Source of the DNA: Flavobacterium sp. | GTDB lineage: Bacteria; Bacteroidota; Bacteroidia; Flavobacteriales; Flavobacteriaceae | Assembly (NCBI RefSeq): GCF_046153165.1 | Contig: NZ_JBJXEN010000010.1 | Location: 5,995 to 69,994, forward strand | Length of the DNA stretch: 64,000 nt | Reading direction: 5' to 3' | The notes under the pieces: generated by a model | Database searches by the model: none | What the model was told of the DNA's origin: nothing | The model's input: the letters and a program-made list of their open reading frames with translations, nothing else | Part shown: one piece after another, positions 8,799-26,987 of the stretch | How positions within the stretch are numbered: position 1 is the first letter of the stretch | Layout: each line of letters begins with the position of its first letter | Program-made: the position numbers and the translations under genes

Positions 8799-8985
8799 TG
8801 TATCGTTTTACAATTAATAAGGAAACTAAAATGGAAAGCAGCCAAATAGAAAAAAAGTAAATATAAATGGCAGGAAATCCCAATACATTTGTAGAAGAAT
8901 CAAATAGCAAAACTATAGGAAGATTAAGCCCTATGAGTAAAACTATAGATACAATTACTAATTTTTGTTGGTGTCTTTTTTTCAT
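8791..8985 (-). CDS. Small 2-TM protein overlapping the kinase start (CbrX/DUF3311-like position)
   Basis: 64 aa, two hydrophobic stretches around LGFPAIY; 8-nt overlap with kinase ATG. Confidence 0.7.
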   Translation of the reverse strand: MKKRHQQKLVIVSIVLLIGLNLPIVLLFDSSTNVLGFPAIYIYFFSIWLLSILVSLLIVKRYNE

Positions 8986-8993
8986 ATTTAATT

Positions 8994-9030
8994 AAAAAAC
9001 CTAAAGCCCTTGAAAATTCAAGAGCTTTAG
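8994..9030 (-). terminator. Intra-operon intrinsic terminator/attenuator
   Basis: Hairpin ctaaagc-cttgaa / ttcaag-gctttag followed on the minus strand by G-T6. Confidence 0.6.
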
Positions 9031-9048
9031 ATTTAATACAATTATTAA

Positions 9049-9264
9049 TTAATCTTCATATTCGTTTGTTAATGAGTACCATCCAAAAATAGTCAAACCT
9101 GTAACAATTAAAGGTAATAAAATAAAAAATATAATTATTCCAAAAACCAAGTCATCTTGTTTTCCTGAGGTCAACTTTCCTCCAAATATTCCGATACTAT
9201 AGTAAGCAATCACGATAGATAAAGCAATCCAAACTATTCCTAAATATTTTTTTATTGTGTTCAT
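9049..9264 (-). CDS. Small 2-TM membrane protein (DUF6814-like)
   Basis: 71 aa, two TM helices, C-terminal FGWYSLTNEY; family name from recall. Confidence 0.65.
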   Translation of the reverse strand: MNTIKKYLGIVWIALSIVIAYYSIGIFGGKLTSGKQDDLVFGIIIFFILLPLIVTGLTIFGWYSLTNEYED

Positions 9265-9276
9265 AATTTTTATGTT

Positions 9277-10815
9277 TTAGTCGTGAAGTGTATTAATTTT
9301 TTTATCAATGTAAATCATTCCAATTATGAAACAAACTGCTGCAATTCCTATTGGATACCATAATCCTTCTAAATAAAATTCTGGGTTTCCAGCATCTTTA
9401 GCCGAAGTTACGAAATAAGTAGATATCGCAGGAAGTAATCCTCCAAAAATACCGTTTCCAACGTGATATGGTAATGACATTGATGTATATCTAATTTTTA
9501 CAGGGAACATTTCGACAAGGAAAGCTGCAATTGGACCATAGACCATCGTTACAAAAATTACTTGAATAAAGACTAGAAAAATAAGCATCCATCGATCACT
9601 GCTATTAATAGTTTTAGTCACTTTAGTATCTACTTTGTCTTTTCCTTTATCATCTACTAATACTTTTCCGTTTTCTATGTGAATGGTTTTTATCTCTTCT
9701 ACGGTAGTTCCATCTACATATGCTTTTGTAGTAGTATAAATAGAATCTAATTTAGTAGCATCAATTTCTTTGATAGATGGAACCACTTTAGTTTGTTCTA
9801 CAATTTCAGTTTTTAAAGCTAAATCTGTAGTTTGATACATGGCTTTGTATATTGGTCTGTATAGCAAAATTGCTAATAACATTCCTCCCATCATAATGTA
9901 TTTTCTACCTATTTTATCACTCAACCAACCAAACACGATAAAGAATGGTGTTCCAAAAATTAAAGCTATTCCTAATGACATATCTACTTGAGATGAATCG
10001 ACACCCATTACGGTTTTCATAAAGTTCATCGCATAAAATTGCCCTGTATACCACACAACTCCTTGTCCCATTGTGGCACCAAACAATGCAAGCAAAACAA
10101 ATTTTAAATTGTATTTGTTTCCAAAACTTTCTTTTAGAGGATTTGTAGATGTTTTTCCTTCTGATTTTGCTTTTGCAAATACAGGAGATTCATCCATATT
10201 TTTACGAATCATATACGATACAAATACCATGATGATTGAAACCCAAAACGGTACTCTCCATCCCCATTCGTCAAAAGCTTCTTTAGATAAAACGCTTTTT
10301 GTTATAAGAATTACCATCAATGAAATAAACAAACCAACTGTTGCTGTAGTTTGAATCCATGAAGTCCAATAACCTTTTTGACCAGCTGGTGCATGTTCTG
10401 CTACATAAGTTGCAGCTCCACCATATTCGCCACCAAGCGCTAAACCTTGTAACAAACGCAATACTAAAACTAATAATGGAGCAAAAAAACCAATGCTTTC
10501 ATAACTCGGAATACAACCTATTAGGAAAGTGGCTCCACCCATTAATAATAATGTAACCATAAATGTATATTTTCTTCCTATCAAATCGCCTAAACGACCG
10601 AAGAATAATGCTCCAAAAGGGCGAACTACAAAACCTGCTGCAAATGTTGCTAATGTAGATAAGAAGGCAGCTGTAGGATTATCTGAAGGGAAAAATTTAG
10701 TAGAAATTACCACTGCTAAACTTCCAAAGATGTAGAAGTCATACCATTCTATCATTGTTCCCATTGAGGAGGCTGAAATTACTTTCCAGATTCCTTTTGT
10801 TGATTTTTCTTTCAT
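9277..10815 (-). CDS. MFS transporter, metabolite:H+ symporter (MHS) family
   Basis: GTMIEWYDF, RPFGALFFGRLGDLIGRK and QGLALGGEYGGA motifs. Confidence 0.9.
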   Translation of the reverse strand: MKEKSTKGIWKVISASSMGTMIEWYDFYIFGSLAVVISTKFFPSDNPTAAFLSTLATFAAGFVVRPFGALFFGRLGDLIGRKYTFMVTLLLMGGATFLIGCIPSYESIGFFAPLLVLVLRLLQGLALGGEYGGAATYVAEHAPAGQKGYWTSWIQTTATVGLFISLMVILITKSVLSKEAFDEWGWRVPFWVSIIMVFVSYMIRKNMDESPVFAKAKSEGKTSTNPLKESFGNKYNLKFVLLALFGATMGQGVVWYTGQFYAMNFMKTVMGVDSSQVDMSLGIALIFGTPFFIVFGWLSDKIGRKYIMMGGMLLAILLYRPIYKAMYQTTDLALKTEIVEQTKVVPSIKEIDATKLDSIYTTTKAYVDGTTVEEIKTIHIENGKVLVDDKGKDKVDTKVTKTINSSDRWMLIFLVFIQVIFVTMVYGPIAAFLVEMFPVKIRYTSMSLPYHVGNGIFGGLLPAISTYFVTSAKDAGNPEFYLEGLWYPIGIAAVCFIIGMIYIDKKINTLHD

Positions 10816-12933: not shown

Positions 12934-13539
12934 ATGGAATTTGATCCAGAAAATCTTGAACAATCAGCTATTTATAAATTACTTACAGGAGCTGTCATTC
13001 CACGGCCTATTGGTTGGATATCTAGTGTAAGTGAGGATGGAATAAACAACCTTGCTCCTTTTTCTTTTTTTAATGCGATTGGAGACGATCCTCCTCATGT
13101 CATGTTTTCAACAGTCAGAGGAAATAATACGAATAAGGATACCTTAAATAACGTATTATCTACTAAGCAGTTTGTAGTTAATATGGTTACAGAAGAGTTA
13201 GTTGAACAAATGAATATGACCTCACAATCAATTCCATCTGATGAAAGTGAATTTGAACTAGCTGGTCTTACTCCTATTGCTTCCGTAAAAGTAAAACCAA
13301 TGCGTGTTAAAGAAAGTCCTATTACTTTCGAATGTGAATTAGTTCACCACTACTCATTAGAAAATCACAAATTTGGCGGAGCTACGATGATTGTTGGTAA
13401 AATAATAATGATGCACATTGATGAAAGTGTCTTACTAGATAATTACAAAATAAATATGAATACTTACAAACCTGTAGCTCGTTTAGCAGGTTCAAATTAT
13501 AGCAAAATAGGGGAAATATTTTCAATAAAAAGAAGTTAG
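12934..13539 (+). CDS. Flavin reductase-like FMN-binding split-barrel protein (COG1853/DIM6-NTAB type)
   Basis: VIPRPIGWISS, NLAPFSFFN and KDTLNN motifs. Confidence 0.85.
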   Translation: MEFDPENLEQSAIYKLLTGAVIPRPIGWISSVSEDGINNLAPFSFFNAIGDDPPHVMFSTVRGNNTNKDTLNNVLSTKQFVVNMVTEELVEQMNMTSQSIPSDESEFELAGLTPIASVKVKPMRVKESPITFECELVHHYSLENHKFGGATMIVGKIIMMHIDESVLLDNYKINMNTYKPVARLAGSNYSKIGEIFSIKRS

Positions 13540-13707: not shown

Positions 13708-15993
13708 ATGAAAATAGCAGTAATTGGTGGTGGTCCAGGAGGACTTTATTTTTCGATATTAACTAAAAAAGCGATGCCTCATTGGCAAATAGACATTTAT
13801 GAACGTAATAAAGCGGACGATAGTTTTGGATTTGGCGTTGTGTTTTCCGATGAGACATTAGGAGAATTCTTAAAACGCGATATGCAATCGTATGAATTAA
13901 TTCGTAGTAAATTTGCCTATTGGGACGATATTGTTGTAGCACGTGATGGAGAATCTGTAAGTATTGCTGGTAATGGTTTTTGCGGTTGCTCTAGAAAAAC
14001 GCTTCTACAGTTGCTGCAACAAAGATGTCTTGAAGAAGGTATAAACCTTCATTTTGAACAAAATGTCGATGATTTATCACAATTCGAAGATGCCGATATT
14101 ATTGTGGCTTGCGACGGAATTGCAAGTGGAATTCGTACTAAATATGAAAAAGATTTTGGTACAAAAATAGAAATGAAAAAAAATCGTTTCGTTTGGCTAG
14201 GATCTACAAAACCTTTAGACGCTTTTACTTATTTCTTCAGAACTACAGAATTCGGAACTATTGTAGCACATTCCTATCAATATGAAGAAGGAATGAGTAC
14301 TTGGATTTTTGAATGTTCCGATGAAACTTGGCAAAAATTTAATTTTGAAGTCACCAATGAAGAAGATACTATTGCTAAAATTTCAGAAATCTTTAAAGAT
14401 GAATTAGATGGTCATCCACTAATTTCAAATAAATCACATTGGCGTCAATTTCCACATGTAACCAATGAGAATTGGTATCATAAAAATATCGTTTTGTTAG
14501 GTGATGCCAAAGCCACAGCGCATTATTCCATCGGTTCTGGAACAAAATTAGCTATGGATTGCGCCATCGGACTTTCTGATGCGGTAATTGCAAATCCAAA
14601 TGATGTGCAAACTGCATTTCAACAATATGATAAAACTAGGAGAAATACAGTCGAAATGATTCAATATGCGGCATTAGTGTCGCTAGACTGGTTCGAAAAT
14701 ATGGATAGAAATAACCAACATCCTTTTCAACAATTTGCTTTCGGATGCATGACACGTTCTAAAAAAGTAACTTTCGAAAATTTGTGTTTACGAGATAAAT
14801 CATTTACAGACAAAGTTTTAGAAGAATTTAATAACAATAATCATGTTGATGACAAAATCCAACCAGCAGCATTTTCAAAATTTAAACTTCGTGATTTAGA
14901 CTTACAAAACCGAATTGCAATGTCTTCTATGGGACAATATTCTGCTGAAAACGGATTGGTAAACGACTGGCATTTCCAACATTACACTTCAAGAGCAATT
15001 GGTGGTTTAGGTTTAATTTTAACAGAAATGACAGCCATTTCTGAAACAGGAAGAATTACAGAAGGTTGTGCCGGAATTTATACTGATAATCAAATTAAAG
15101 AATGGAAACGAATTAACAATTTCATTCATCAACATACACAAACAAAAATCGGAATTCAATTAGGACATTCTGGACGAAAAGGCGCTACAAAAAAACCTTG
15201 GGAAGATACTTTTACTGGAACAAGTTGGGGATTACTTTCCGCTTCTGCTATTCCTTTTAACGAAAGTGCACTAACTCCAAAAGCGATGACTTTAGCCGAT
15301 ATGGATTTGATAATTTCTCAATTCGTACAAGCAACAAAAAATGCTAATGATGCTAATTTTGATATGATAGAATTACAAGCACATCACGGATTTTTATTAG
15401 CTTCTTTCTTATCTCCATTAACAAATAACAGAACTGATGAATTCGGTGGAAGTAACGAAAACCGATTAAAATTTCCATTACGCGTTTTTACAGAAATGCG
15501 AAACGCTTTCCCAAAAGAAAAACCAATGTCTGTACGAATTTCAGCAACAGATTGGGCAGAAAACGGAATTTCATCAGCAGATGTAATTGCAATTTCTGAA
15601 GCTTTTAAATCAGCTGGTGCTGATATTATAAATGTTTCTACTGGAAATACAGTGGCCAATCAAAAAACTCAAACAGGAAGAATGTGGCAAACACCTTTTT
15701 CAGATGCGGTGAGAAATACAGTTCATATTCCAACCATAACGGCTGGTTATATTCAAGATATTGATCAAATAAATACGATAATTCTAAACGGAAGAGCAGA
15801 TTTAGTAGCTTTAGGAAGACCTTTATTATTAGATGCGAATTTTGTAAGAAATGCTCAAGCTTACGAACAATTTCAACCAACTGATATTCCAAATCAATAC
15901 AAAATGGGAATTTCACATTTGTATCCGTTAAAAGCCTCTGAAAGAAAACAGGTTGAAGGAATGAAAAAGGCATTGAAACCAAAGAGTAATTAG
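13708..15993 (+). CDS. Bifunctional aroyl-CoA 5-hydroxylase / OYE-like oxidoreductase (2-aminobenzoyl-CoA monooxygenase/reductase, salicylyl-CoA 5-hydroxylase family)
   Basis: N-terminal GGGPGG, FGFGVVFSD, GDAKATAHYSIGSGTKLA; C-terminal OYE barrel (QLGHSGRK, SPLTNNRTDEFGGS); 761 aa. Confidence 0.9.
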   Translation: MKIAVIGGGPGGLYFSILTKKAMPHWQIDIYERNKADDSFGFGVVFSDETLGEFLKRDMQSYELIRSKFAYWDDIVVARDGESVSIAGNGFCGCSRKTLLQLLQQRCLEEGINLHFEQNVDDLSQFEDADIIVACDGIASGIRTKYEKDFGTKIEMKKNRFVWLGSTKPLDAFTYFFRTTEFGTIVAHSYQYEEGMSTWIFECSDETWQKFNFEVTNEEDTIAKISEIFKDELDGHPLISNKSHWRQFPHVTNENWYHKNIVLLGDAKATAHYSIGSGTKLAMDCAIGLSDAVIANPNDVQTAFQQYDKTRRNTVEMIQYAALVSLDWFENMDRNNQHPFQQFAFGCMTRSKKVTFENLCLRDKSFTDKVLEEFNNNNHVDDKIQPAAFSKFKLRDLDLQNRIAMSSMGQYSAENGLVNDWHFQHYTSRAIGGLGLILTEMTAISETGRITEGCAGIYTDNQIKEWKRINNFIHQHTQTKIGIQLGHSGRKGATKKPWEDTFTGTSWGLLSASAIPFNESALTPKAMTLADMDLIISQFVQATKNANDANFDMIELQAHHGFLLASFLSPLTNNRTDEFGGSNENRLKFPLRVFTEMRNAFPKEKPMSVRISATDWAENGISSADVIAISEAFKSAGADIINVSTGNTVANQKTQTGRMWQTPFSDAVRNTVHIPTITAGYIQDIDQINTIILNGRADLVALGRPLLLDANFVRNAQAYEQFQPTDIPNQYKMGISHLYPLKASERKQVEGMKKALKPKSN

Positions 15994-16008: not shown

Positions 16009-17598
16009 ATGAAACATTACGAAGATAATTTCGCTCACAATAGTTTACCAAGTTTGGACTTACAACCAGAATATAAATTCTTGGGTTTACCACAATTCAA
16101 TCGTCCAGAAATGCTTAATTGTGTGGAAAAATTACTCGACAATCATATAGCTGAAGGTCGTGGAAACAACATTTGCATCAGAACTTTCGAGGAAACTTGG
16201 ACATATCAGGATTTATACGAAAAAGCCAATCAAATAGCACATGTTTTAGTCGAAGATTTAGGTTTAAAATCAGGAAATCGTGTATTGATTCGTTCGGCTA
16301 ATAATCCAATGATGGTCGCTTGCTGGTTTGCAGTGTTAAAAGCTGGCGGAATTGTTGTCGCAACTATGCCTTTGTTACGTTCCAAAGAATTAACTACAAT
16401 TATAGATTGCGCCGAAATTTCTCATGCTTTTTGCGATAGCAATTTATCTGATGAAATGAACTTAGTAAAGTCTAGTTTTCTAAAAAAGGTTTGTTATTAT
16501 AAAAATTCCGATTTAGAGAAGTTGATGGAAACTAAACCAAAAACATTTCATAATTTTCATACCAAAGCAGATTCAGTTGCCCTAATTGGTTTCACTTCAG
16601 GGACTACAGGTCTGCCTAAAATGACAGCACATTATCACAAAGATATTCTTAATATTTGTGAAGCTTTCCCACAATATTCATTACAACCAACTGAAATCGA
16701 TGTTTTTACAGGAAGTCCACCTCTAGGTTTTACGTTCGGATTAGGCGGATTGGTTTTATTTCCCATGTATTTTGGCGCTTCCACATTTTTAATCGAAAAA
16801 CCAAGTCCAGATTTACTTTTAAAAGTCATTGAAGAATACAAAATAACGATTTGTTTTACAGCTCCAACAGCTTGGAGAATTATCACTACAAAAGTGAATA
16901 AATTTAATGTTTCCAGCTTACGCAAATGTATATCTGCTGGAGAAACATTACCCTTAAAAGTTTGGCAAGATTGGTATAATGCTACAGGATTAAAAATCAT
17001 AGACGGAATCGGTGCTACCGAAATGCTACATATTTTTATTTCATCTAACGAAGAAAATATGAAACCAGGATCAACTGGTATAGCAATTACTGGTTATGAA
17101 GCTAAAATTATTGATATAAATGGTGATGAAGTTTCAAGAAATGAACCAGGAAGATTAGCCGTTCGTGGAATTACTGGTTGTAAATACTTAAACCGAGAAG
17201 ACAAACAACGAGAATATGTAGAAAACGGTTGGAACATCACTGGAGATATTTTCCGTCAAGATGAAGAAGGTTATTTTTATTTTGTGGCTCGCGGTGACGA
17301 TATGATTATTTCTTCGGGGTATAATATTGCTGCAATTGAAGTAGAAAGTGTACTTTTAACCCACGAAGATATTCTAGAATGTGCAGTAGTAGGATTACCA
17401 GATGAAGAACGAGGAATGCTAGTTTGTGCACACATTGTTTTAAAAGAAAATGACAAAGCAAACGATGAATTAACTAAAACTATTCAACAATGGTTCAAAG
17501 AAGTAGCTGCTCCATATAAATATCCAAGAGTAATTAATTTTGTAGAAGAATTGCCAAAAACTGAAACTGGAAAAATACAACGATTTAAATTAAAATAA
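16009..17598 (+). CDS. Aromatic acid--CoA ligase, 2-aminobenzoate-CoA ligase (AbmG)-type
   Basis: FTSGTTGLPK, SPPLGFTFGLG, DGIGATEMLHIFIS and LPKTETGKIQRF motifs. Confidence 0.85.
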   Translation: MKHYEDNFAHNSLPSLDLQPEYKFLGLPQFNRPEMLNCVEKLLDNHIAEGRGNNICIRTFEETWTYQDLYEKANQIAHVLVEDLGLKSGNRVLIRSANNPMMVACWFAVLKAGGIVVATMPLLRSKELTTIIDCAEISHAFCDSNLSDEMNLVKSSFLKKVCYYKNSDLEKLMETKPKTFHNFHTKADSVALIGFTSGTTGLPKMTAHYHKDILNICEAFPQYSLQPTEIDVFTGSPPLGFTFGLGGLVLFPMYFGASTFLIEKPSPDLLLKVIEEYKITICFTAPTAWRIITTKVNKFNVSSLRKCISAGETLPLKVWQDWYNATGLKIIDGIGATEMLHIFISSNEENMKPGSTGIAITGYEAKIIDINGDEVSRNEPGRLAVRGITGCKYLNREDKQREYVENGWNITGDIFRQDEEGYFYFVARGDDMIISSGYNIAAIEVESVLLTHEDILECAVVGLPDEERGMLVCAHIVLKENDKANDELTKTIQQWFKEVAAPYKYPRVINFVEELPKTETGKIQRFKLK

Positions 17599-17604
17599 AC
17601 AATA

Positions 17605-19185
17605 ATGAGAAAAGCATTTTTAGTCATAAGTATCACCATTTTATCATTAACAGGAATATTAATTTACGTAAATTGGAAGTTTAGTTTTCTATTATTGATA
17701 TTTATTCCATTAATTATAATGGGATTATATGATATGTTTCAGTCTAAAATTACTATTCGCAGAAACTTCCCACTTTTAGGAAGAATGCGTTATTTATTAC
17801 AATCGATTGGTCCTGAAATGCGTCAATATTTCATTGAAACCGATTTAGATGGAAAACCATTTAATCGTTTACAACGAGATTTAGTATACCACCGAAGTAA
17901 AAAAGAAACTGACTCTATGCCTTTCGGGACACAACTTGATGTGTATCAAGAAGGTTACGAATGGATTAATCATAGTATTCGTTCTATACCTTTCTCGCAA
18001 GTAAACGAAAACCCGAGAGTTCATATTGGATCATCTCAATGTACAAAACCTTATGATGCTAGTTTGTTTAATATCAGCGCGATGAGTTTCGGTTCATTAA
18101 GTAAAAATGCCATTTTAGCGTTAAATAATGGCGCAAAACAAGGAGGGTTTTATCATAATACAGGCGAAGGCGGATTATCTCCTTATCATTTACAAGGTGG
18201 TGATGTAGTTTGGAATATTGGAACTGGTTACTTTAGTTGTCGTACACCTGATGGCAAATTTAACTATGATGAATATATAAAAAGAGCCACTTTAGATAAT
18301 GTAAAAATGATCGAAATAAAATTCTCGCAAGGTGCAAAACCTGGTCATGGCGGAATTTTACCCAAAGAAAAAGTAACTGACGAAATTGCTGCTATACGTT
18401 TAGTTTCTAAAGGTCAGGATATTTTATCACCACCTAGTCATTCTGCTTTTACAACACCTTTAGAATTAATGGATTTTGTAAAATTACTACGAAAAGGTTC
18501 TGGCGGAAAACCAATTGGAATGAAAATTTGCATTGGCAATAAATCAGAATTTTTGTCTATTTGTAAAGCAATGGTCGAAACCCAAACCTATCTCGATTTT
18601 ATCACTGTAGATGGTGGCGAAGGTGGAACTGGAGCAGCACCACAAGAATATTCAGACCACGTAGGAATGCCTTTACGTGATGCCGTAGCCTTTGTTTATG
18701 ATGCTCTAAACGGGTACGGAATAAAAGACCAAATCAAAATTATTTGTAGCGGAAAAGTTATTACTGGATTTGACATCATCAGAAATCTTTCTCTTGGTGC
18801 CGATTTATGTAATTCGGCGCGTGGAATGATGTTTGCACTCGGCTGTATTCAAGCACTAGAATGTCACGCAAATACTTGTCCGACAGGTGTTGCTACACAA
18901 AATCCAGAATTAATGAAAGGATTAGTTCCAGAAGAGAAAAGCGTTCGAGTAGCAAGATTTCAGCACGAAACCGTAAAAAGCGCGATGGATCTAATGGCAT
19001 CAGCCGGAATAGATCATCCAGACAAAGTCGACCGATCAGTTGTCAGCACAAGAGTTCATCTTGGTAAAACACAAACTTTTGAAGAAACATATCCAGAAAT
19101 AAAAACAGGCTCATTATTAGACGGAAGTACCGTTCCCAATGAACTTTTTAAAGTTTGGAAAAAAGCAAGTGTAGATAAATTTTAG
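17605..19185 (+). CDS. Stand-alone FMN-binding glutamate synthase family protein (GltB2/YerD-like) with N-terminal TM
   Basis: SAMSFGSLS, NTGEGG, EIKFSQGAKPGHGG and CIQALECHANTCPTGV [3Fe-4S] motif. Confidence 0.9.
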   Translation: MRKAFLVISITILSLTGILIYVNWKFSFLLLIFIPLIIMGLYDMFQSKITIRRNFPLLGRMRYLLQSIGPEMRQYFIETDLDGKPFNRLQRDLVYHRSKKETDSMPFGTQLDVYQEGYEWINHSIRSIPFSQVNENPRVHIGSSQCTKPYDASLFNISAMSFGSLSKNAILALNNGAKQGGFYHNTGEGGLSPYHLQGGDVVWNIGTGYFSCRTPDGKFNYDEYIKRATLDNVKMIEIKFSQGAKPGHGGILPKEKVTDEIAAIRLVSKGQDILSPPSHSAFTTPLELMDFVKLLRKGSGGKPIGMKICIGNKSEFLSICKAMVETQTYLDFITVDGGEGGTGAAPQEYSDHVGMPLRDAVAFVYDALNGYGIKDQIKIICSGKVITGFDIIRNLSLGADLCNSARGMMFALGCIQALECHANTCPTGVATQNPELMKGLVPEEKSVRVARFQHETVKSAMDLMASAGIDHPDKVDRSVVSTRVHLGKTQTFEETYPEIKTGSLLDGSTVPNELFKVWKKASVDKF

Positions 19186-19337: not shown

Positions 19338-19766
19338 ATGAACCAACCGTTTATAAAACAAGAAAAAATCCGTTTCAAACACATCGACTACGCAGGAATA
19401 GTTTTCTATCCGCGTTTTCTAGAAATGCTAAATGACTTAGTAGAAGATTGGTTCGAAGAAGCATTAGACAGACCATTTTCTAAAATGCACGAAACCAATG
19501 GAATTCCAACGGTCGATTTGAAAGTACAATTTAAAAAAGCGGCCCGATTAGGAGAAATTCTAACCAAAAAATTATGGGTAAAAAATCTTGGTAGCGCATC
19601 AATTTTATGTGGATTTTCATTTGAAGATGAACAAGGAAAAACTTGTTTAGAAGGTGAGGTTACTTTGGTAAATATTGTTTTTCAGGAAAATAAAAACGAT
19701 ATCAAAGCAGAACCTTTTAACGAGGAAATGAAAGAAAAAATTTCAAATTTCATTCAAAATGATTGA
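19338..19766 (+). CDS. Acyl/aroyl-CoA thioesterase (4-HBT hotdog family)
   Basis: HIDYAGIVFYPRF catalytic Asp motif; 142 aa. Confidence 0.88.
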   Translation: MNQPFIKQEKIRFKHIDYAGIVFYPRFLEMLNDLVEDWFEEALDRPFSKMHETNGIPTVDLKVQFKKAARLGEILTKKLWVKNLGSASILCGFSFEDEQGKTCLEGEVTLVNIVFQENKNDIKAEPFNEEMKEKISNFIQND

Positions 19767-20397
19767 ATTTAAAACATTTATGAGTTTAACTGATTCTTCT
19801 GTTGCCGAAGAAATGATTCAGATTTTGAAAGTAAATAAAATTGCTTTCAAAATACAGGATACGTCAAAAGATTTTGATGCTACTTTTGCTAATAATACAG
19901 CACAGGATTCTATACTTATTATGCTTAATCCCAATGATTTTGATAAAGCTTCTAGAATACTGGATGAGAACATGCAGTTTAATATTAATGAAATTGATTC
20001 TCTTCATCCACTTTTTTCTTTCACTATAGATGAACTAAAAGATGTTGTGAAAAATTATGATGAATGGCATCCTTTAGATGTTAAATTGGCTAAGCATCTT
20101 TTAAAAAATGAGAGTATAACCGTTGAAGATTCCGAAATTATTGACAAACAACTTCAAAAAGAAATTAAATCCCAACAACCTGAAAAATCAAATTCATTAA
20201 CCCTTATTATGGGTTACGGTTTTTGTATAATGGGTGGCTTAGCGGGAATTGGAATTGCAATATTCTTATTAACTGGAAAAAGAACTATGACAGATGGTTC
20301 AAAAAAATATATTTACTCAAAATCTGATAGAGTTCACGGTGTATATATGCTTATTGCTGGCACTGCTGTTTTTCTTTCATTATTTATTTTAAATTAA
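19759..20397 (+). CDS. Hypothetical membrane protein (DUF2007-like N-terminus, two C-terminal TMs)
   Basis: AEEMIQILKVNKI..DTS pattern, DEWHPLD, two hydrophobic helices; overlaps thioesterase stop. Confidence 0.55.
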   Translation: MIEFKTFMSLTDSSVAEEMIQILKVNKIAFKIQDTSKDFDATFANNTAQDSILIMLNPNDFDKASRILDENMQFNINEIDSLHPLFSFTIDELKDVVKNYDEWHPLDVKLAKHLLKNESITVEDSEIIDKQLQKEIKSQQPEKSNSLTLIMGYGFCIMGGLAGIGIAIFLLTGKRTMTDGSKKYIYSKSDRVHGVYMLIAGTAVFLSLFILN

Positions 20398-20404
20398 ATC
20401 GACA

Positions 20405-21385
20405 ATGGAATTCAAAAAATTTAAAGCAGCAACCGTTCAAACTTCACCTGTTTTTCTAAACGTTGAAAAAACAGTTGAAAAAGCGATTACATTTATCAAA
20501 GAAGCCAGTCAAAATGGAGCGCAATTAATTGCTTTTCCAGAAGTATTTGTGGCAGGTTATCCGTATTGGAATTGGATTATAACACCAGTTCAAGGTAGCA
20601 AATGGTACGAAAAACTATACAAATGTTCTGTCAAAACAGACGATGAAGCCATGCAACCTTTGTTTCAAGCAGCAAAAGACAACAACATTCACATTGTAAT
20701 CGGAATTAACGAACGTGGTGATTCTTATGGTGAAATTTACAATACTAATTTAATCATTGATAATCACGGAAACTTAATCGGAAAACACAGAAAGTTAGTA
20801 CCCACTTGGGCAGAAAAACTTACTTGGACTTCTGGAGATGGTTCTTCATTAAAAGTATATAATACAGAAATTGGTCCCATTGGAACTTTGGCTTGTGGTG
20901 AAAACACGAATACTTTAGCGCGTTTCACATTACTATCTCAAGGGGAATTAATTCACATTGCGAATTATATTTCGTTGCCAGTGGCACCACCAGATTATAA
21001 TATGGCGGAAGCGATAAAAATTCGTGCAGCGGCACATTCTTTCGAAGGGAAATTGTTTACGATTGTTTCGTGTTCAACGATTTCTAAAGAAATTATGGAA
21101 GCGTTAAAAGATGATGTTCCGAATGTGGAAGAATTATTAACTCGTAAGAACTCCGCTTTTTCAGGCTTTATTGGTCCAAATGGCGCTGTAATCGGCGAGC
21201 CATTAATTGACGACGAAGGAATGGTGTATGCCGATATCGATTTAGAAAAATGCATTCAACCAAAACAAATGCACGACATTCTCGGACATTATAATAGATT
21301 TGATATCTTTGATTTGCGTGTAAACATTGCTCCAACTCGAAAAATCACGTTTATAGACAATCACGAGGAATTTAATAAAAGATAG
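20405..21385 (+). CDS. Carbon-nitrogen hydrolase (nitrilase/amidase superfamily)
   Basis: Glu-Lys-Cys triad in FPE, HRKLVPT and LACGEN. Confidence 0.9.
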   Translation: MEFKKFKAATVQTSPVFLNVEKTVEKAITFIKEASQNGAQLIAFPEVFVAGYPYWNWIITPVQGSKWYEKLYKCSVKTDDEAMQPLFQAAKDNNIHIVIGINERGDSYGEIYNTNLIIDNHGNLIGKHRKLVPTWAEKLTWTSGDGSSLKVYNTEIGPIGTLACGENTNTLARFTLLSQGELIHIANYISLPVAPPDYNMAEAIKIRAAAHSFEGKLFTIVSCSTISKEIMEALKDDVPNVEELLTRKNSAFSGFIGPNGAVIGEPLIDDEGMVYADIDLEKCIQPKQMHDILGHYNRFDIFDLRVNIAPTRKITFIDNHEEFNKR

Positions 21386-21397
21386 CATTAAAATACT

Positions 21398-22516
21398 ATG
21401 GAAGATAAATTTTCAGATGACCAAATTGGTCGTGCAAGAGTACAAGATTCGCCAGAATTAGTAGCGTATTACAAAGAGTTAGAAACGCTTGGCGCTGGTG
21501 CATTATGGACAGTGGCTAACGACATTGAACCTTGGGAACCAAGATCATCATCTGTTCCAATGCTTTGGAAATATGACGATTTACGTGAATTAGTTTTAAA
21601 ATCATCGGAATTAGTTACACCAGAACAGGCAGGAAGACGTGTAGTTTATTTAGTAAACGATAAACGTAAAGATGTTTCTGCAGCTGTGGGTTGGTTGTAT
21701 ACTGGAATACAAGTGACTCGACCTGGAGAAAGTACTTCGGCGCATCGTCATCGTGCTTCTGCTTTACGCTTTATCATGGAAGGCGAACGCGGATATACTG
21801 TTGTAGATGGTAATAAAATCATGCTAGAAGTAAACGATTTTGTAATTACACCTAATTCGACTTGGCACGAACACGGAGTTGAACAAGGTGGAAAAACATG
21901 CATTTGGCAAGATGGTTTAGATATTCCTTTAGTAAATGCGCTTGAAGCCAATGATTATGCCGTTTATGATGGCAAACAACCTCTAACAGTTCCTGTTAAT
22001 TATTCTCCAATATTATATGGGGGAGCTGGTTTGATCCCAGCCGATAAAACTTGGGACAAACCCTATTCACCATTATTTAAATATTCTTGGAAGAACGTAT
22101 ATCCAGCACTTTTAGAAGCTCAAAAAGTATCAGAAGTGAATCCTTTTGATGGAATTTTTATGCAATATTCCAATCCATTAACTGGCGGCCACGTAATGCA
22201 AACTATGGGAGCATCGATGCAATTATTGCCAGCTGGTTTCAAAGGAAAAGCACACAAACATACAGGTTCAATCGTATATCAATGTGCTAAAGGAAAAGGT
22301 TATTCTATCATTAACGGAAAAAGATACGATTGGAAAGAACGTGATATTTTCTGTGTTCCATCTTGGGCTTGGCACGAACATCACAATTTATCTGAAACGG
22401 AAGATGCTTGTTTGTTTTCGTTTAATGATTTACCTGTAATTCAATCTTTAGGATTATATCAAGAAAAAATATATGAGGAAAATAAAGGATATCAAGAAGT
22501 TACGATAATACTATAA
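21398..22516 (+). CDS. Gentisate 1,2-dioxygenase-like bicupin ring-cleaving dioxygenase
   Basis: LYTGIQ..PGE..AHRHRASALRF, WHEHG, DGLDIPLV; second cupin with HKHT/WAWHEH. Confidence 0.85.
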   Translation: MEDKFSDDQIGRARVQDSPELVAYYKELETLGAGALWTVANDIEPWEPRSSSVPMLWKYDDLRELVLKSSELVTPEQAGRRVVYLVNDKRKDVSAAVGWLYTGIQVTRPGESTSAHRHRASALRFIMEGERGYTVVDGNKIMLEVNDFVITPNSTWHEHGVEQGGKTCIWQDGLDIPLVNALEANDYAVYDGKQPLTVPVNYSPILYGGAGLIPADKTWDKPYSPLFKYSWKNVYPALLEAQKVSEVNPFDGIFMQYSNPLTGGHVMQTMGASMQLLPAGFKGKAHKHTGSIVYQCAKGKGYSIINGKRYDWKERDIFCVPSWAWHEHHNLSETEDACLFSFNDLPVIQSLGLYQEKIYEENKGYQEVTIIL

Positions 22517-22519
22517 AAA

Positions 22520-23041
22520 ATGTTTAAAAATACAATATATCTATATTTAATTCTATTAACTATAATTTCTTGCAATTCTAAACATGAGAATATGGAACAT
22601 ATGAAGCCATTAACAGTTAATAAAGATTCTATAAAAGTTCCACCTTTTAAAATTCAGTTAAAGTTTTCGGACAAAGCAAATAGAACTTTAAAAAAGGAAA
22701 ATGAAACTATTTTAGTTGATGTTGAATTTATAGGAACTCCTGAATCAAAAATTACTGAAAAATATAAATATGAATATTACGATGAAAACGGACAAGTTAC
22801 AATTGGGAAAAAAATAATTGAAGTAACCAAACAGAGTGAAATAAAATTTGATAATTGTAAAGTATCCAAAGGCTTATTAGAATTGCTCAAAAACAAAACA
22901 TATAATGTTAGAATTACTATTGTAAGTGGCAGAAAGACATCTGAGGATAATTTGCTATACTGTGATTTTATAGAGCAAAATATTGAGAAAATTAGAAATA
23001 AAACTATAAAGATAAACGGCAAGTTAATTGAGGAAGAATAA
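22520..23041 (+). CDS. Hypothetical lipoprotein
   Basis: Lipobox-like IISC after a hydrophobic leader; very AT-rich. Confidence 0.6.
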   Translation: MFKNTIYLYLILLTIISCNSKHENMEHMKPLTVNKDSIKVPPFKIQLKFSDKANRTLKKENETILVDVEFIGTPESKITEKYKYEYYDENGQVTIGKKIIEVTKQSEIKFDNCKVSKGLLELLKNKTYNVRITIVSGRKTSEDNLLYCDFIEQNIEKIRNKTIKINGKLIEEE

Positions 23042-23243
23042 GCATTGCAAATAAAAATCGTTTACTGTAAGTTAAAGTCTAAATTTGATGTTGGCTTTGT
23101 GTTTGGAAAATCACTTATAAATCGATAGTTTTGGATAATTAATCCTCACCTTCAGTAACTGACGGGATATTCAATAATAATTTCAACAATCAATATTAAA
23201 AACCTTAGAACCTTAGTTCCTTTGCAACTTAGAACCTTAAAAC

Positions 23244-24152
23244 ATGAAACTACTTACCTACAAAACATCAGAAACAGAGCCAAGATTAGGATTTATTCAT
23301 AACAATCAAGTTATTGATATGGAAGATTTTGGAGATATTTCTAATTTCCCATTACCAAATGATATGTTGGATTTAATTGATATGGGATTTGAAATTATTG
23401 CAGAAATAAATGATATGATTTCAGAAACAAGTCAAAAACAAATCGATGAAATTAGTTATGCTTTTGATGAAATTACCATCCTTGCTCCTATCGAAAAACC
23501 AAGAAAAAACATCATCGGAATTGGTTTAAATTACACCGAACACGTTGCCGAAAGCGCTAGAACATTAGATACAACAGGAAAATTACCTACAAAACCAATT
23601 ATTTTTTCTAAGCCTACTACAACTGTAACTGGAACAAATACTAACATTATTAAAAACACTAAATTGACCGAACAATTAGATTGGGAAGTCGAATTGGCTG
23701 TTGTTATTGGTAAAAAAGGAAAATATGTAGCTAAAGAAGACGCATTAGATTATGTGTTTGGTTACACGGTAATTAACGATATTTCTGCACGTGATTGTCG
23801 TCGAGAAGGACAATGGATTGTATCAAAAGGGCAAGATACTTTTGCGCCAATGGGTCCAATTATAGTAACCAAAGACGAAATCGAGAATCCACACAACTTG
23901 AATTTATCATTAAAAGTAAATGGTGTTGAAAAACAAAATTCGAATACAAAATTCTTATTGTTCAATATCAATGATTTGATTGAAGATTTAAGTATCGTTT
24001 TCACTTTAGAACCAGGTGATATTATTGCTACAGGAACACCATCAGGCGTTGGAGCAGGAAGAAGCCCACAAGAATTTATGAATGATGGTGATGTGGTTGA
24101 AGCCACTGTAGAAGGAATTGGAACAATTGTGAATACAGTTAAGGAGATTTAG
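23244..24152 (+). CDS. Fumarylacetoacetate hydrolase family protein
   Basis: GIGLNYTEH, LDWEVEL, NDISARD, KGQDTFAPMGP and GDIIATGTPSGVG motifs. Confidence 0.92.
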   Translation: MKLLTYKTSETEPRLGFIHNNQVIDMEDFGDISNFPLPNDMLDLIDMGFEIIAEINDMISETSQKQIDEISYAFDEITILAPIEKPRKNIIGIGLNYTEHVAESARTLDTTGKLPTKPIIFSKPTTTVTGTNTNIIKNTKLTEQLDWEVELAVVIGKKGKYVAKEDALDYVFGYTVINDISARDCRREGQWIVSKGQDTFAPMGPIIVTKDEIENPHNLNLSLKVNGVEKQNSNTKFLLFNINDLIEDLSIVFTLEPGDIIATGTPSGVGAGRSPQEFMNDGDVVEATVEGIGTIVNTVKEI

Positions 24153-24154
24153 AA

Positions 24155-24448
24155 ATGAAATTAAGCAATTCATTTAGCGGAGCTTTAAGGACATTTTCAT
24201 ACTTTATGGCAAGTGGTACTCATTACAATTTAAAGGGAATAAATTATTTAGAACTTTATGGAAATGAACCAAGTGCGATAGAACAAGTTTTTGCAATTTT
24301 TGCAAATGTTATTGAAATGAATGAGAAAGGTGAAGTTTTAAATGCAAAATATGCTGAAATAAGAGCAACAAATTATTTAAAACAATATTGTGACAATTCA
24401 TTTGTTATTGATAAACCTTTTGAAGATTGGGAAATTGAGCTACATTAA
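24155..24448 (+). CDS. Hypothetical protein, 97 aa
   Basis: Clean ORF with 2-nt and 15-nt spacing to neighbours; no motif recognised. Confidence 0.6.
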   Translation: MKLSNSFSGALRTFSYFMASGTHYNLKGINYLELYGNEPSAIEQVFAIFANVIEMNEKGEVLNAKYAEIRATNYLKQYCDNSFVIDKPFEDWEIELH

Positions 24449-24463
24449 CACATTATTTTTAAA

Positions 24464-25213
24464 ATGAAAAAATACAGAATAGGACAAATAGTTCCATCAT
24501 CAAACGTAACGATGGAAACCGAAATACCGGCTATCTTTCGCTCACGTGAAACCATTTTACCAGAACGATTTACTTTTCATTCAAGCAGAATGAGAATGAA
24601 AAAAGTGACCAAAGAAGAGCTCGAAGCTATGGATGCCATGAGTCTTAAATGTGCTCAGGAATTATCTGATGCACATGTGGATGTTATGGGTTATGCTTGT
24701 TTGGTTGCCATTATGAGTATGGGTCGCGGTTATCATTGCGTTTCGGAAATAAATTTACATCAAGAAACTGTAGCGAACGACTTCCCTACTCCAATTGTGA
24801 CTTCTGCTGGAGCATTAATCAATGGATTAAAAGTTTTAGGGGCAAAAAAAGTAGCTATTATTACACCGTATATGCGTCCGTTAACAAATATGGTTGTCGA
24901 TTATATAGAACATCAAGGATTTGAAGTTGTTGATTCAATTGCTTTGGAAATTCCAGATAATTTAGAAGTCGCCGCTCAAGATCCAATGAATTTATTAGAA
25001 ATTTACAAACGTTTAAACTTGGAAGGTGTTGATGTTTTAGTTGCTTCAGCTTGTGTACAAATGCCATCATTAGAAGCGATTGATTTAATTCAAAAGGAAA
25101 TTGGAATTCCAGTTACTTCTGCTGCAGTTTGTACTACGTATGAAATGATGAAAAAATTAGGTATTGAAGCTAAATCTGCTATTGGTGGCGAATTATTAAG
25201 CGGAAAATATTAA
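24464..25213 (+). CDS. maiA: Maleate cis-trans isomerase (Asp/Glu racemase superfamily)
   Basis: GQIVPSSNVTMETE, YACLVAIM and SACVQMP (two catalytic Cys). Confidence 0.9.
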   Translation: MKKYRIGQIVPSSNVTMETEIPAIFRSRETILPERFTFHSSRMRMKKVTKEELEAMDAMSLKCAQELSDAHVDVMGYACLVAIMSMGRGYHCVSEINLHQETVANDFPTPIVTSAGALINGLKVLGAKKVAIITPYMRPLTNMVVDYIEHQGFEVVDSIALEIPDNLEVAAQDPMNLLEIYKRLNLEGVDVLVASACVQMPSLEAIDLIQKEIGIPVTSAAVCTTYEMMKKLGIEAKSAIGGELLSGKY

Positions 25214-25225
25214 AATATAATTATT

Positions 25226-25267
25226 AAAAAAAATCCTGAAGTTTTTGAAGCTTCAGGATTTTTTTTT
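25226..25267. terminator. Bidirectional terminator between maleate isomerase and rho
   Basis: A8-tcctgaag / cttcagga-T9 stem-loop. Confidence 0.85.
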
Positions 25268-26987
25268 AGTCATTCATCGAAATCAAAAATTCTTCGTTAT
25301 TTCTGGTTTTTTTGAATCTATCATTTATAAATTCCATTGCTTCTACAGGATTCATATCGGCAAGATATTTTCTCATAATCCACATGCGTTGTATTGTTTT
25401 TTCATCAAGTAATAAATCATCACGACGTGTACTAGAAGAAGTAAGATCAATTGCTGGAAAAATACGACGATTTGCAATTTTACGATCCAATTGTAATTCC
25501 ATATTACCAGTTCCTTTAAATTCTTCGAAGATAACTTCGTCCATTTTAGAACCTGTTTCTGTAAGTGCTGTTGCAATAATACTTAACGAACCTCCATTCT
25601 CTACATTACGAGCCGCTCCAAAAAAGCGTTTTGGTTTTTGCAATGCATTAGCATCTACACCTCCACTTAATACTTTTCCAGATGCTGGTTGCACTGTGTT
25701 ATAAGCTCTTGCTAATCGTGTAATTGAATCTAAAAGAATAACAACATCATGTCCACATTCGACCAAACGTTTTGCTTTTTCTAACACGATATTAGCAATT
25801 TTCACGTGCTCTTGTGGTTCTCTATCAAAAGTAGAAGCAACTACTTCTCCACGCACACTACGTTGCATGTCTGTAACTTCTTCTGGACGTTCATCTATTA
25901 GTAATACTATTAAATATACTTCTGGATGATTGGCTGCAATTGCATTAGCAATCTCCTTAAGTAACATTGTTTTACCAGTTTTTGGTTGTGCTACGATCAT
26001 ACCACGTTGTCCTTTCCCTATTGGAGAAAACAAATCGATAATACGGGTAGAAATAGAACTTCCTTTTTCTGCCAAACGAAATTTTTCTGTTGGAAATATT
26101 GGTGTTAAGTGTTCAAAAGAAACTCTATCACGAACTACTTGCGGATCATGTCCGTTTATTTTTAGAACTCTAACTAAAGGAAAATATTTTTCTCCTTCTT
26201 TTGGAGGACGAACCACCCCTTTTACAGTGTCTCCTGTTTTTAAACCGAACAAACGTACTTGAGAAGTTGATAAATAAATATCATCAGGTGAAGCCAAGTA
26301 ATTATAATCTGATGAGCGCAAAAAACCATAACCATCAGGCATCATTTCTAAGACACCTTCACTTTCTATAATTCCCTCGAACTCATAATCTGGTTCTCTA
26401 AAATTATTTTTATGTTTTGCGTTAGGATTAGGGTTTTGATTTTGATTTTTTTGATTCGGATTTACAGGTTTTTCTTTTTGAACTGGCTCTGCATTTTCTA
26501 GTGTTTCCGAAACTACTTCTTCTGTATTTGTTGGGGCAACTACAGGTTTAACTGCTTTTTTATTTCTATGTGAATTATCTACTTTAGTCACATTATTTTC
26601 GTCTTTTGTAAAACGAATCACTTTTGGTGGGCGTTGTTTTTGTATTACTTCAACAACTGGTTCACTTGGTATAGATACAGCTTCAATTTTAGGTTCTTCA
26701 AAAGAAATTATTTCTTGCTGAACTGGCTTATTTACTACTGGTTTTGGGGTAATTGGTTTTGAAACTTTAGCTTCAACAATCCTTGTTCTCTTGGGCTTTT
26801 CTTCAACAACTGGAACAATTTCTTGTGCGATTGGAGCGATTTTTTCAGGATTTGCTGCTTGATAATCTAATATTTGATAAACAAGCTCATCTTTTTTTAG
26901 CGTCTTGAATTTAGCAATTTTAGCAATTTTAGCAATTTCTTGTAGCTCAGGGAGCTTCATTTCTTTTAAAACAGAAATATCAAACAT
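25266..26987 (-). CDS. rho: Transcription termination factor Rho with long N-terminal insertion
   Basis: [33 protein letters not shown] and FKGTGNMEL motifs. Confidence 0.98.

Follow-up and report, generated by a model that had tools for sequence, protein, structure and literature searches.

What becomes of anthranilate once 2-aminobenzoyl-coenzyme A (2-aminobenzoyl-CoA) has been hydroxylated is a question left standing by the Azoarcus studies of the 1990s. Two described routes come closest to the gene cluster considered here: the 2-aminobenzoate-CoA route of Azoarcus evansii, which reportedly continues by beta-oxidation, and the salicylyl-CoA route of Streptomyces sp. WA46, which is said to proceed without a C–N hydrolase or maleate isomerase. 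The stretch of Flavobacterium sp. DNA analysed here (64,000 nucleotides of contig NZ_JBJXEN010000010.1, assembly GCF_046153165.1, positions 5,995 to 69,994 of the forward strand; hereafter the window) shares with both a ligase, a fused flavin adenine dinucleotide (FAD)/OYE hydroxylase and a thioesterase, which lie upstream of a four-gene module (within 20405–25213) encoding a nitrilase, a ring-cleaving dioxygenase, an FAH-family hydrolase and a maleate isomerase. Maleate isomerase is the exit of nicotinate catabolism in its maleamate branch, where NicF releases ammonia from a cis-C4 fragment. We consider it probable that the nitrilase is the nitrogen-releasing hydrolase of a lower pathway for anthranilate formed by these four genes, of which we infer the substrates and the order of the last steps. 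This role is proposed because the module is kept across three phyla, because the nitrilase and its partners co-occur almost perfectly within the genus, and because NicF is absent from the genome.

Most bacterial branch-1 nitrilases have come to notice as biocatalysts, with no natural substrate assigned to them; the window protein belongs to this branch by its nearest relatives, and may hydrolyse a nitrile. Its open reading frame (ORF; ATG start, 326 amino acids) is separated by 7 nt from the ORF before it and by 12 nt from the dioxygenase gene after it, and the product matches CN_hydrolase (PF00795; 6.2e-41, 140.9 bits against a cut-off of 23.2) over residues 7–285. The 13 best PDB matches are all nitrilases or cyanide (di)hydratases (2.9e-61 to 3.4e-37), among them NitA from Pseudomonas fluorescens EBC191 (6ZBY; 2.9e-61, about 40% identity), nitrilase 8UXU (2.6e-60) and Nit6803 (3WUY; 5e-55), whereas formamidases, N-carbamoyl-D-amino-acid hydrolases and NIT2 reach E-values of only 1e-9 to 1e-4, amidases together with formamidases standing at about 1e-5 to 1e-8. 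The protein missed the equivalog cut-off of TIGR04048 (Nit6803/Nit1C; 229.3 bits against 502.6), with no Nit1C genes nearby, as well as those of the aliphatic amidase/formamidase models NF009802 and NF009803 (23 bits against 427 and 41 bits against 406), and it gave no match to the isochorismatase fold (PF00857). The organism has a G+C content of about 31%, and the close homologues are all from Flavobacterium. In an alignment of 129 nitrilases the columns of Glu46, Lys130, Glu137 and Cys164 keep their residue in no fewer than 95% of the sequences of the clade to which the window enzyme belongs and in no fewer than 85% of other nitrilases, which bears out the intact Glu-Lys-Cys triad with an LACGEN motif noted in a preliminary description of this DNA. 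With the solved branch-1 enzymes (NitA, 8UXU, Nit6803 and the cyanide dihydratases/hydratases) the window enzyme thus shares the fold, the Glu-Lys-Glu-Cys residues and, along its whole length, about 40% identity (1e-61 to 1e-48); it differs from them in Gly165, Ala163, a loop at residues 188–200, an Arg247 that is invariant only in its clade, and a fixed catabolic context.

This context is strongly conserved within the genus. Across 80 Flavobacterium loci the nitrilase gene is flanked by the thioesterase gene in 79 and the dioxygenase gene in 75, and the other pathway genes recur in 67 to 72 of them (Table 1), with missing cases falling mostly at contig ends. Over 60 Flavobacterium loci chosen by nitrilase similarity, the isomerase (91.9%) and the nitrilase (90.6%) had the highest median identities to the window in the operon, those of the ligase, hydroxylase and thioesterase lying at 80–84%. 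In 101 genomes drawn evenly across Flavobacterium, nitrilase and dioxygenase were both present in 45 and both absent in 52, two genomes holding the nitrilase only and two the dioxygenase only (phi 0.92, Fisher p 1e-23); for nitrilase and maleate isomerase the counts were 45 with both, 2 with the nitrilase only, 4 with the isomerase only and 50 with neither (phi 0.88, Fisher p 2e-21). The discordant genomes are with few exceptions fragmented or incomplete assemblies, and one (G409) has an in-frame stop in the dioxygenase gene. Within Flavobacterium, maleate isomerase is found essentially only where the nitrilase is. The preliminary description had asked for such a co-occurrence count; it had also placed the nitrilase directly upstream of the dioxygenase and in an operon with maleate isomerase, and in the window the isomerase-like gene does lie on the same strand.

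The same description had stated that no NicF-type protein is encoded, and this extends to the genome: the whole assembly, which is 96.5% complete, gave no match to the isochorismatase fold (PF00857, the NicF type), whereas 11 of 14 control genomes gave one. The module is present in a single copy. Just one further CN_hydrolase, a 257-aa ORF, lies on a different contig, and genes for a tryptophan dioxygenase and a kynureninase-like protein are found elsewhere in the genome.

Outside the genus the module is kept at 58–64% identity with its gene order shuffled. The full four-gene set was found in a metagenome-assembled genome (MAG) and in Variovorax boronicumulans, Paraburkholderia pallida, Ruegeria pomeroyi, Ralstonia solanacearum, Sagittula stellata, Burkholderia sp. 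SFA1 and Embleya, and the locus of Bradyrhizobium japonicum has nitrilase, dioxygenase and FAH hydrolase with no isomerase recognised. The MAG nitrilase, 59% identical to that of the window, has its own relatives at 64–69% in proteobacteria and lies in the order SnoaL, nitrilase, cupin, FAH, isomerase, hydroxylase, thioesterase. In the loci read outside Flavobacterium the partners are 57–65% (dioxygenase), 47–57% (FAH hydrolase) and 63–69% (isomerase; proteobacterial copies, one of which is annotated maiA, at 66–69%) identical to those of the window; the Variovorax proteins, for example, stand at 62–63% for the nitrilase, 63% for the dioxygenase, 55–59% for the FAH hydrolase and 67% for the isomerase. 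The four proteins thus diverge in step, which fits inheritance or transfer as a unit. In a maximum-likelihood tree the module nitrilases form one clade (Shimodaira–Hasegawa-like approximate likelihood ratio test (SH-aLRT) 93) in which the module accompanies every one of the 17 members whose context is known, these contexts spanning Bacteroidota, Alpha- and Betaproteobacteria and Actinomycetota. The boundary of the clade is marked by relatives from Polaromonas (52%, the sister sequence) and Salinigranum (49%) that have the LACGENT motif without the module. Two database annotations at such loci are likely mistaken: the 'NADPH dehydrogenase' of Ralstonia solanacearum (L120:6706-7845) is a bicupin dioxygenase 64% identical to that of the window, and the second 'gentisate 1,2-dioxygenase' of Burkholderia SFA1 (L125:8042-8953) is an FAH hydrolase.

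Upstream of the module the gene content varies, and among the loci read all of these variable genes lead to anthranilate or anthraniloyl-CoA. Flavobacterium loci have the aryl-CoA ligase, an AbmA/SdgC-like fused FAD/OYE hydroxylase and the thioesterase, whereas the Variovorax and Embleya clusters encode tryptophan 2,3-dioxygenase and kynureninase. Bradyrhizobium, Ruegeria and Sagittula carry iad-type paired MarR and IorAB (IadAB) genes, with Rieske genes too in Bradyrhizobium, and in Ralstonia and Burkholderia SFA1 the genes for IorAB, thioesterase, AbmA-like hydroxylase, dioxygenase, FAH hydrolase, nitrilase and isomerase lie in one string. Anthranilate is the end product of the iad auxin-degradation pathway (PMC9613470, PMC12633357), and hydroxyanthraniloyl-CoA has been detected in Arthrobacter grown on anthranilate (PMC3534580). 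A 2022 curation (GapMind) omits tryptophan degradation via anthraniloyl-CoA monooxygenase for lack of knowledge (PMC9007349). In V. boronicumulans fed IAA (indole-3-acetic acid), a hydroxyanthranilate of m/z 152 was assigned to the 3-isomer in a 2026 paper (PMC12852158); the assignment was made by retention time, and the isobaric 5-isomer would fit the module of this species (CP023284.1). The IorAB-like genes that adjoin the module in Bradyrhizobium, Ruegeria, Ralstonia, Sagittula and Burkholderia are not needed by the published nine-gene iad core, and their products could turn isatinate (2-aminophenylglyoxylate) directly into anthraniloyl-CoA.

Of the enzymes in this pathway, every input of which bears an amino group, the nitrilase alone is a candidate C–N hydrolase, and we posit the following sequence of reactions for this Flavobacterium. 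The ligase would convert anthranilate, for example from tryptophan via kynurenine, to anthraniloyl-CoA, the AbmA-like flavoprotein would hydroxylate this to 5-hydroxyanthraniloyl-CoA, and the thioesterase would release 5-hydroxyanthranilate, the 2-amino analogue of gentisate. Acting as a 5-hydroxyanthranilate 1,2-dioxygenase, the bicupin enzyme would split C1 from the amino-bearing C2 and leave the nitrogen on the end of the chain. The FAH hydrolase could then cleave the resulting 2,4-diketo acid by C–C hydrolysis to pyruvate and a nitrogen-bearing cis-C4 acid, from which the nitrilase would produce maleate and ammonia, with the isomerase turning maleate into fumarate. No maleylpyruvate isomerase of the GST or mycothiol type is encoded in the cluster and a maleate isomerase is, which together match the exit logic of the maleamate branch. 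As judged from its gene context, the window enzyme would hold the position that NicF has there, on the way from a cis-C4 fragment through maleate to fumarate; unlike NicF it belongs to an unrelated fold, and its substrate may be a nitrile. A variant in which the nitrilase deaminates 5-hydroxyanthranilate or its CoA thioester before ring cleavage was rejected on chemical grounds, as an enzyme-bound aryl thioether would not undergo the hydrolysis open to a thioimidate or an acyl-enzyme.

The dioxygenase was used to search plasmid records, which returned 19 at 54–65% identity with a clean break to canonical gtdA at no more than 43%. Adjacent to it, 11 of the 19 carry the clade nitrilase. In four (Novosphingobium resinovorum, N. 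humi, Aminobacter aminovorans and Tistrella mobilis) dioxygenase, FAH hydrolase and flavin reductase are accompanied by another kind of nitrilase; one record is cut by insertion sequence elements right after the FAH gene, and one (Sulfitobacter alexandrii) has no nitrilase within 10 kb. Seventeen of these modules were read, the remaining two being further Novosphingobium records, and 15 of the 17 have a nitrilase of either lineage. The replacement enzyme is about 30% identical to that of the window, has a CWEN motif, scores 354 bits to plant NIT4 (a beta-cyanoalanine nitrilase/hydratase), and shares no convergent residues with the CGEN clade at clade-specific positions. The Novosphingobium loci that encode it also have an AbmA-like hydroxylase and a thioesterase, and no maleate isomerase was found within 10 kb of the NIT4-like genes in Aminobacter, Tistrella or Novosphingobium. 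None of the 17 modules showed an amidase-signature protein, an isochorismatase-fold protein or an amidase of branch 2. We thus posit that the module needs nitrilase chemistry, since two separate nitrilase lineages have been recruited to it and no ordinary amidase family has.

These observations bear on the substrate of the nitrilase. We tentatively propose a nitrile, either (Z)-3-cyanoacrylate or 3-cyanoacryloylpyruvate, and slightly favour it over maleamate. Along this route a cyclic imidate intermediate of ring cleavage would fragment instead of hydrolysing, which would give 3-cyanoacryloylpyruvate and, after the FAH hydrolase, (Z)-3-cyanoacrylate; of the two oxygen atoms one would end up in the product and one in water, an equation that balances (C7H7NO3 + O2 -> C7H5NO4 + H2O). 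Such a nitrile is likely to be an unsaturated beta-cyano acid and not an aromatic nitrile. NIT4 (6I00), whose relatives fill the same slot, acts on a beta-cyano carboxylate, a class to which (Z)-3-cyanoacrylate would belong, although the NIT4-like module enzymes differ from the window enzyme in the motif (CWEN there, CGEN here) as well as in overall sequence. That cleavage of 5-hydroxyanthranilate by the dioxygenase yields a nitrile, and that the window enzyme is accordingly a true nitrilase with a substrate made by its own pathway, is a suggestion we offer with some reserve.

A strict amidohydrolase of maleamate, or of maleamoylpyruvate before C–C hydrolysis, is a sub-case of the proposed nitrogen-releasing role that we hold with rather low confidence. 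Here the enzyme would be a non-homologous replacement of NicF, for which the genome has no gene, and the Gly after the catalytic Cys would adapt the scaffold to amides. Ring cleavage beside nitrogen normally gives an amide, as in the formation of N-formylmaleamate by 2,5-dihydroxypyridine dioxygenase, and both oxygen atoms would stay in the product as they do in the gentisate reaction of 3BU7. The residue after Cys is also said, from work by Kiziak, Sosedov and Stolz, to influence amide handling in NitA-type nitrilases. The preliminary description had likewise read the enzyme as a possible non-orthologous replacement acting on maleamate or on the amide-bearing ring-fission product, pointing to CGEN in place of the typical CWE. 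The tie of the enzyme to the dioxygenase and isomerase and its role in nitrogen release are retained here; the argument from the motif is not. Among the 150 best 50%-identity representatives from a library of 1.8 billion proteins, C-G-E is found in 70 and C-W-E in 34, followed by C-Y-E (8), C-F-E (3) and C-A-E (3), so that a residue other than Trp is not rare, and solved NitA (6ZBY) itself has CAEH. CGEN nitrilases at 41–46% identity lie in unrelated contexts, one by a GntR-aminotransferase gene and PhzF and another by octopine dehydrogenases and a creatinase-like gene, and CGEN alone is therefore uninformative on maleate isomerase or amides. With CGE[NH] the commonest variant in related nitrilases and a CWEN nitrilase substituting in Novosphingobium (two records), Aminobacter and Tistrella, we rejected CGEN as a marker of amidase-like specialisation. 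The absence of ordinary amidases from the plasmid modules and the low score to the aliphatic-amidase model given above also speak against the amide.

Residues other than the Gly set the clade apart. Gly165 is common to the wider CGE family, whereas Ala163 is clade-specific (Ile in most other nitrilases). In the 129-sequence alignment Val47, Gly64, Ser65, Trp67, Trp135, Thr140, Ala163, Thr170, Arg247, Ser250, Gln285, Asp303 and Arg305 are invariant in the clade and rare elsewhere, and the loop at 188–200, which going by the Nit6803 structure papers presumably lines the substrate pocket, stands in place of the W-P motif of most nitrilases; its Ile189 is present throughout the clade (100%) and in none (0%) of the other nitrilases, 79% of which have Pro. 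Paralogues 32–43% identical in other Bacteroidota had no dioxygenase or thioesterase gene adjacent within the 1.5-kb flanks available.

Several points weigh against nitrogen release by the nitrilase as the function of the module. Branch-1 nitrilases are normally poor amidases, and we know of no ring-cleaving dioxygenase that forms a nitrile, so that each chemical variant needs something unprecedented. No biochemistry was identified for any member of the clade, and none of the characterised nitrilases blr3397, REH16 and Nitphym could be placed in it. In Bradyrhizobium, Variovorax, Paraburkholderia, Ruegeria, Sagittula and Embleya the 10 kb around the module contain no AbmA-like hydroxylase, so that the 5-hydroxylation step is conjectural for these six genera. 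Sulfitobacter alexandrii has dioxygenase, FAH hydrolase, flavin reductase and RidA with no nitrilase within 10 kb. Lastly, the dioxygenase of the Ruegeria pomeroyi DSS-3 megaplasmid (L119:10033-11157) is the crystallised GDOsp (3BU7; 901 bits), to which the window dioxygenase is orthologous, and GDOsp turns over gentisate, and not salicylate, in vitro (PMC11264262, PMC13280823); the ring substrate could therefore be gentisate, with nitrogen removed earlier. In the R. pomeroyi locus the GDOsp gene directly follows that of the clade nitrilase, SPO_RS20400, and adjoins iad-type IorAB and MarR genes, and the natural substrate of the enzyme may not be gentisate; no test of GDOsp on 5-hydroxyanthranilate was found in the literature.

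A gentisate pathway is the consequent alternative. Nitrogen would be lost before ring cleavage, for instance if 5-hydroxyanthranilate were oxidised to a quinone imine that is hydrolysed and then reduced again by the flavin reductase, or else salicylate would be the substrate, and the nitrilase would be accessory or detoxifying, apart from the main flow of carbon. Besides the activity of GDOsp, this draws on the best model for the hydroxylase, which is salicylyl-CoA 5-hydroxylase (NF006101; 957 bits, under the cut-off of 1078), on the flavin reductase as a recurrent neighbour, and on the Sulfitobacter locus without a nitrilase; dioxygenase, FAH hydrolase and isomerase would moreover suffice for a direct-hydrolysis gentisate route. 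It leaves unexplained why 15 of 17 plasmid modules carry a nitrilase, why nitrilase and dioxygenase co-occur almost perfectly in Flavobacterium, and why the module is coupled to genes that yield anthranilate, those of the kynurenine and iad routes. Described CoA-dependent salicylate clusters such as sdgABCD of Streptomyces sp. WA46 are also said to need no C–N hydrolase, and we regard this explanation as unlikely. On the window dioxygenase, model TIGR02272 scored 306 bits against a cut-off of 442.

Least probable is that the nitrilase feeds the pathway from outside through hydrolysis of a nitrile from the environment, for instance of indole-3-acetonitrile to IAA in iad loci, or of an aminobenzonitrile or hydroxybenzonitrile to an acid for the ligase: this would suit a branch-1 nitrilase by homology that adjoins auxin-degradation genes in Bradyrhizobium, Ruegeria and Sagittula, and Bradyrhizobium nitrilases do hydrolyse arylaliphatic nitriles (PMC8280356), although clade membership of the characterised one could not be shown, but the fixed neighbours of the gene are those of the lower pathway and not the variable upper ones, the Flavobacterium, Variovorax and Embleya loci have no indole-ring enzymes, and within the genus the nitrilase tracks maleate isomerase.

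The remaining genes of the cluster in the window are listed with the module in Table 1. About half of the Flavobacterium operons carry the gene for the glutamate-synthase FMN-domain protein, which is placed between ligase and thioesterase genes. The flavin reductase (PF01613) also lies by the module in Ralstonia, Novosphingobium, Aminobacter, Tistrella and Sulfitobacter; it recurs across phyla although the AbmA-like hydroxylase has flavins of its own, and might keep an autoxidisable p-aminophenol intermediate reduced. Scans for sigma-70 promoters and for terminators gave results at chance level and carry no information for an operon of the Bacteroidota. A gene for Rho termination factor (25266-26987, minus strand; 573 aa) marks where the catabolic cluster ends; the protein has a long insertion after its N-terminal domain, as is typical for Bacteroidota.

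Table 1. Genes and sequence features of the catabolic cluster (window coordinates), with the NIT4-like nitrilase genes of other loci in the last row
Feature	Position	Strand	Basis or remark	Flavobacterium loci (of 80)
Flavin reductase, first gene of the cluster	12934..13539	+	PF01613	67
Fused FAD-monooxygenase/OYE, 761 aa, salicylyl-CoA 5-hydroxylase / 2-aminobenzoyl-CoA monooxygenase-reductase type	13708..15993	+		69
Aryl-CoA ligase, benzoate-CoA ligase family	16009..17598	+		72
Stand-alone glutamate-synthase FMN-domain protein, 526 aa, accessory	17605..19185	+	PF01645 1.6e-85	42
4HBT-type acyl-CoA thioesterase	19338..19766	+	always just upstream of nitrilase	79
212-aa ORF, hydrophobic C-terminus	19759..20397	+	no family match; not conserved	6
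Nitrilase, LACGENT clade, branch-1, proposed nitrogen-releasing step	20405..21385	+	PF00795, PDB matches, tree	
Codons of Glu46 (20540-20542), Lys130 (20792-20794), Glu137 (20813-20815)	20540..20815	+	129-nitrilase alignment	
Nucleophile motif L162-A-C164-G-E-N167 (context G-T-L-A-C-G-E-N); Cys164 codon 20894-20896	20888..20905	+	translation, alignment	
Clade-specific loop Y188-I-S-L-P-V-A-P-P-D-Y-N-M200	20966..21004	+	alignment	
Bicupin ring-cleaving dioxygenase, GDOsp (PDB 3BU7) orthologue	21398..22516	+	528 bits to 3BU7	
173-aa ORF, lipoprotein-like N-terminus	22520..23041	+	not conserved	0
FAH-family hydrolase, proposed acylpyruvate C–C hydrolase	23244..24152	+	PF01557 9.7e-70	70
DUF7677 protein	24155..24448	+	not conserved	0
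Maleate cis-trans isomerase-like, Asp/Glu-racemase superfamily, 249 aa, last gene of the cluster	24464..25213	+	PF17645 1.5e-16	69
NIT4-like nitrilases	L128:12045-12974; L129:17056-18003; L131 ~8933-9844 (-); L132 ~8920-9846 (-)		Aminobacter, Tistrella, Novosphingobium	

In the full-text literature, with subscription journals outside coverage, no paper was found linking a nitrilase to this dioxygenase, to maleate isomerase or to the catabolism of anthranilate, and the pairing of GDOsp with a nitrilase and an anthranilate-producing locus appears undiscussed. The pathway appears to be both undescribed and widespread. The module is a concrete candidate for the missing lower anthranilate pathway, at the point where the iad pathway is drawn as ending, in Flavobacterium, Bradyrhizobium, Variovorax, Ruegeria, Ralstonia, Burkholderia and a streptomycete relative (Embleya). 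A nitrilase embedded in such a pathway would supply branch-1 nitrilases with a natural substrate. Should that substrate be maleamate, the enzyme would represent a second, unrelated fold for a known reaction. Should it be a nitrile, the module would contain the first nitrile-forming aromatic ring cleavage, carried out by a dioxygenase with a crystal structure, and would give a large clade of bacterial nitrilases a physiological role in tryptophan, auxin and anthranilate catabolism.

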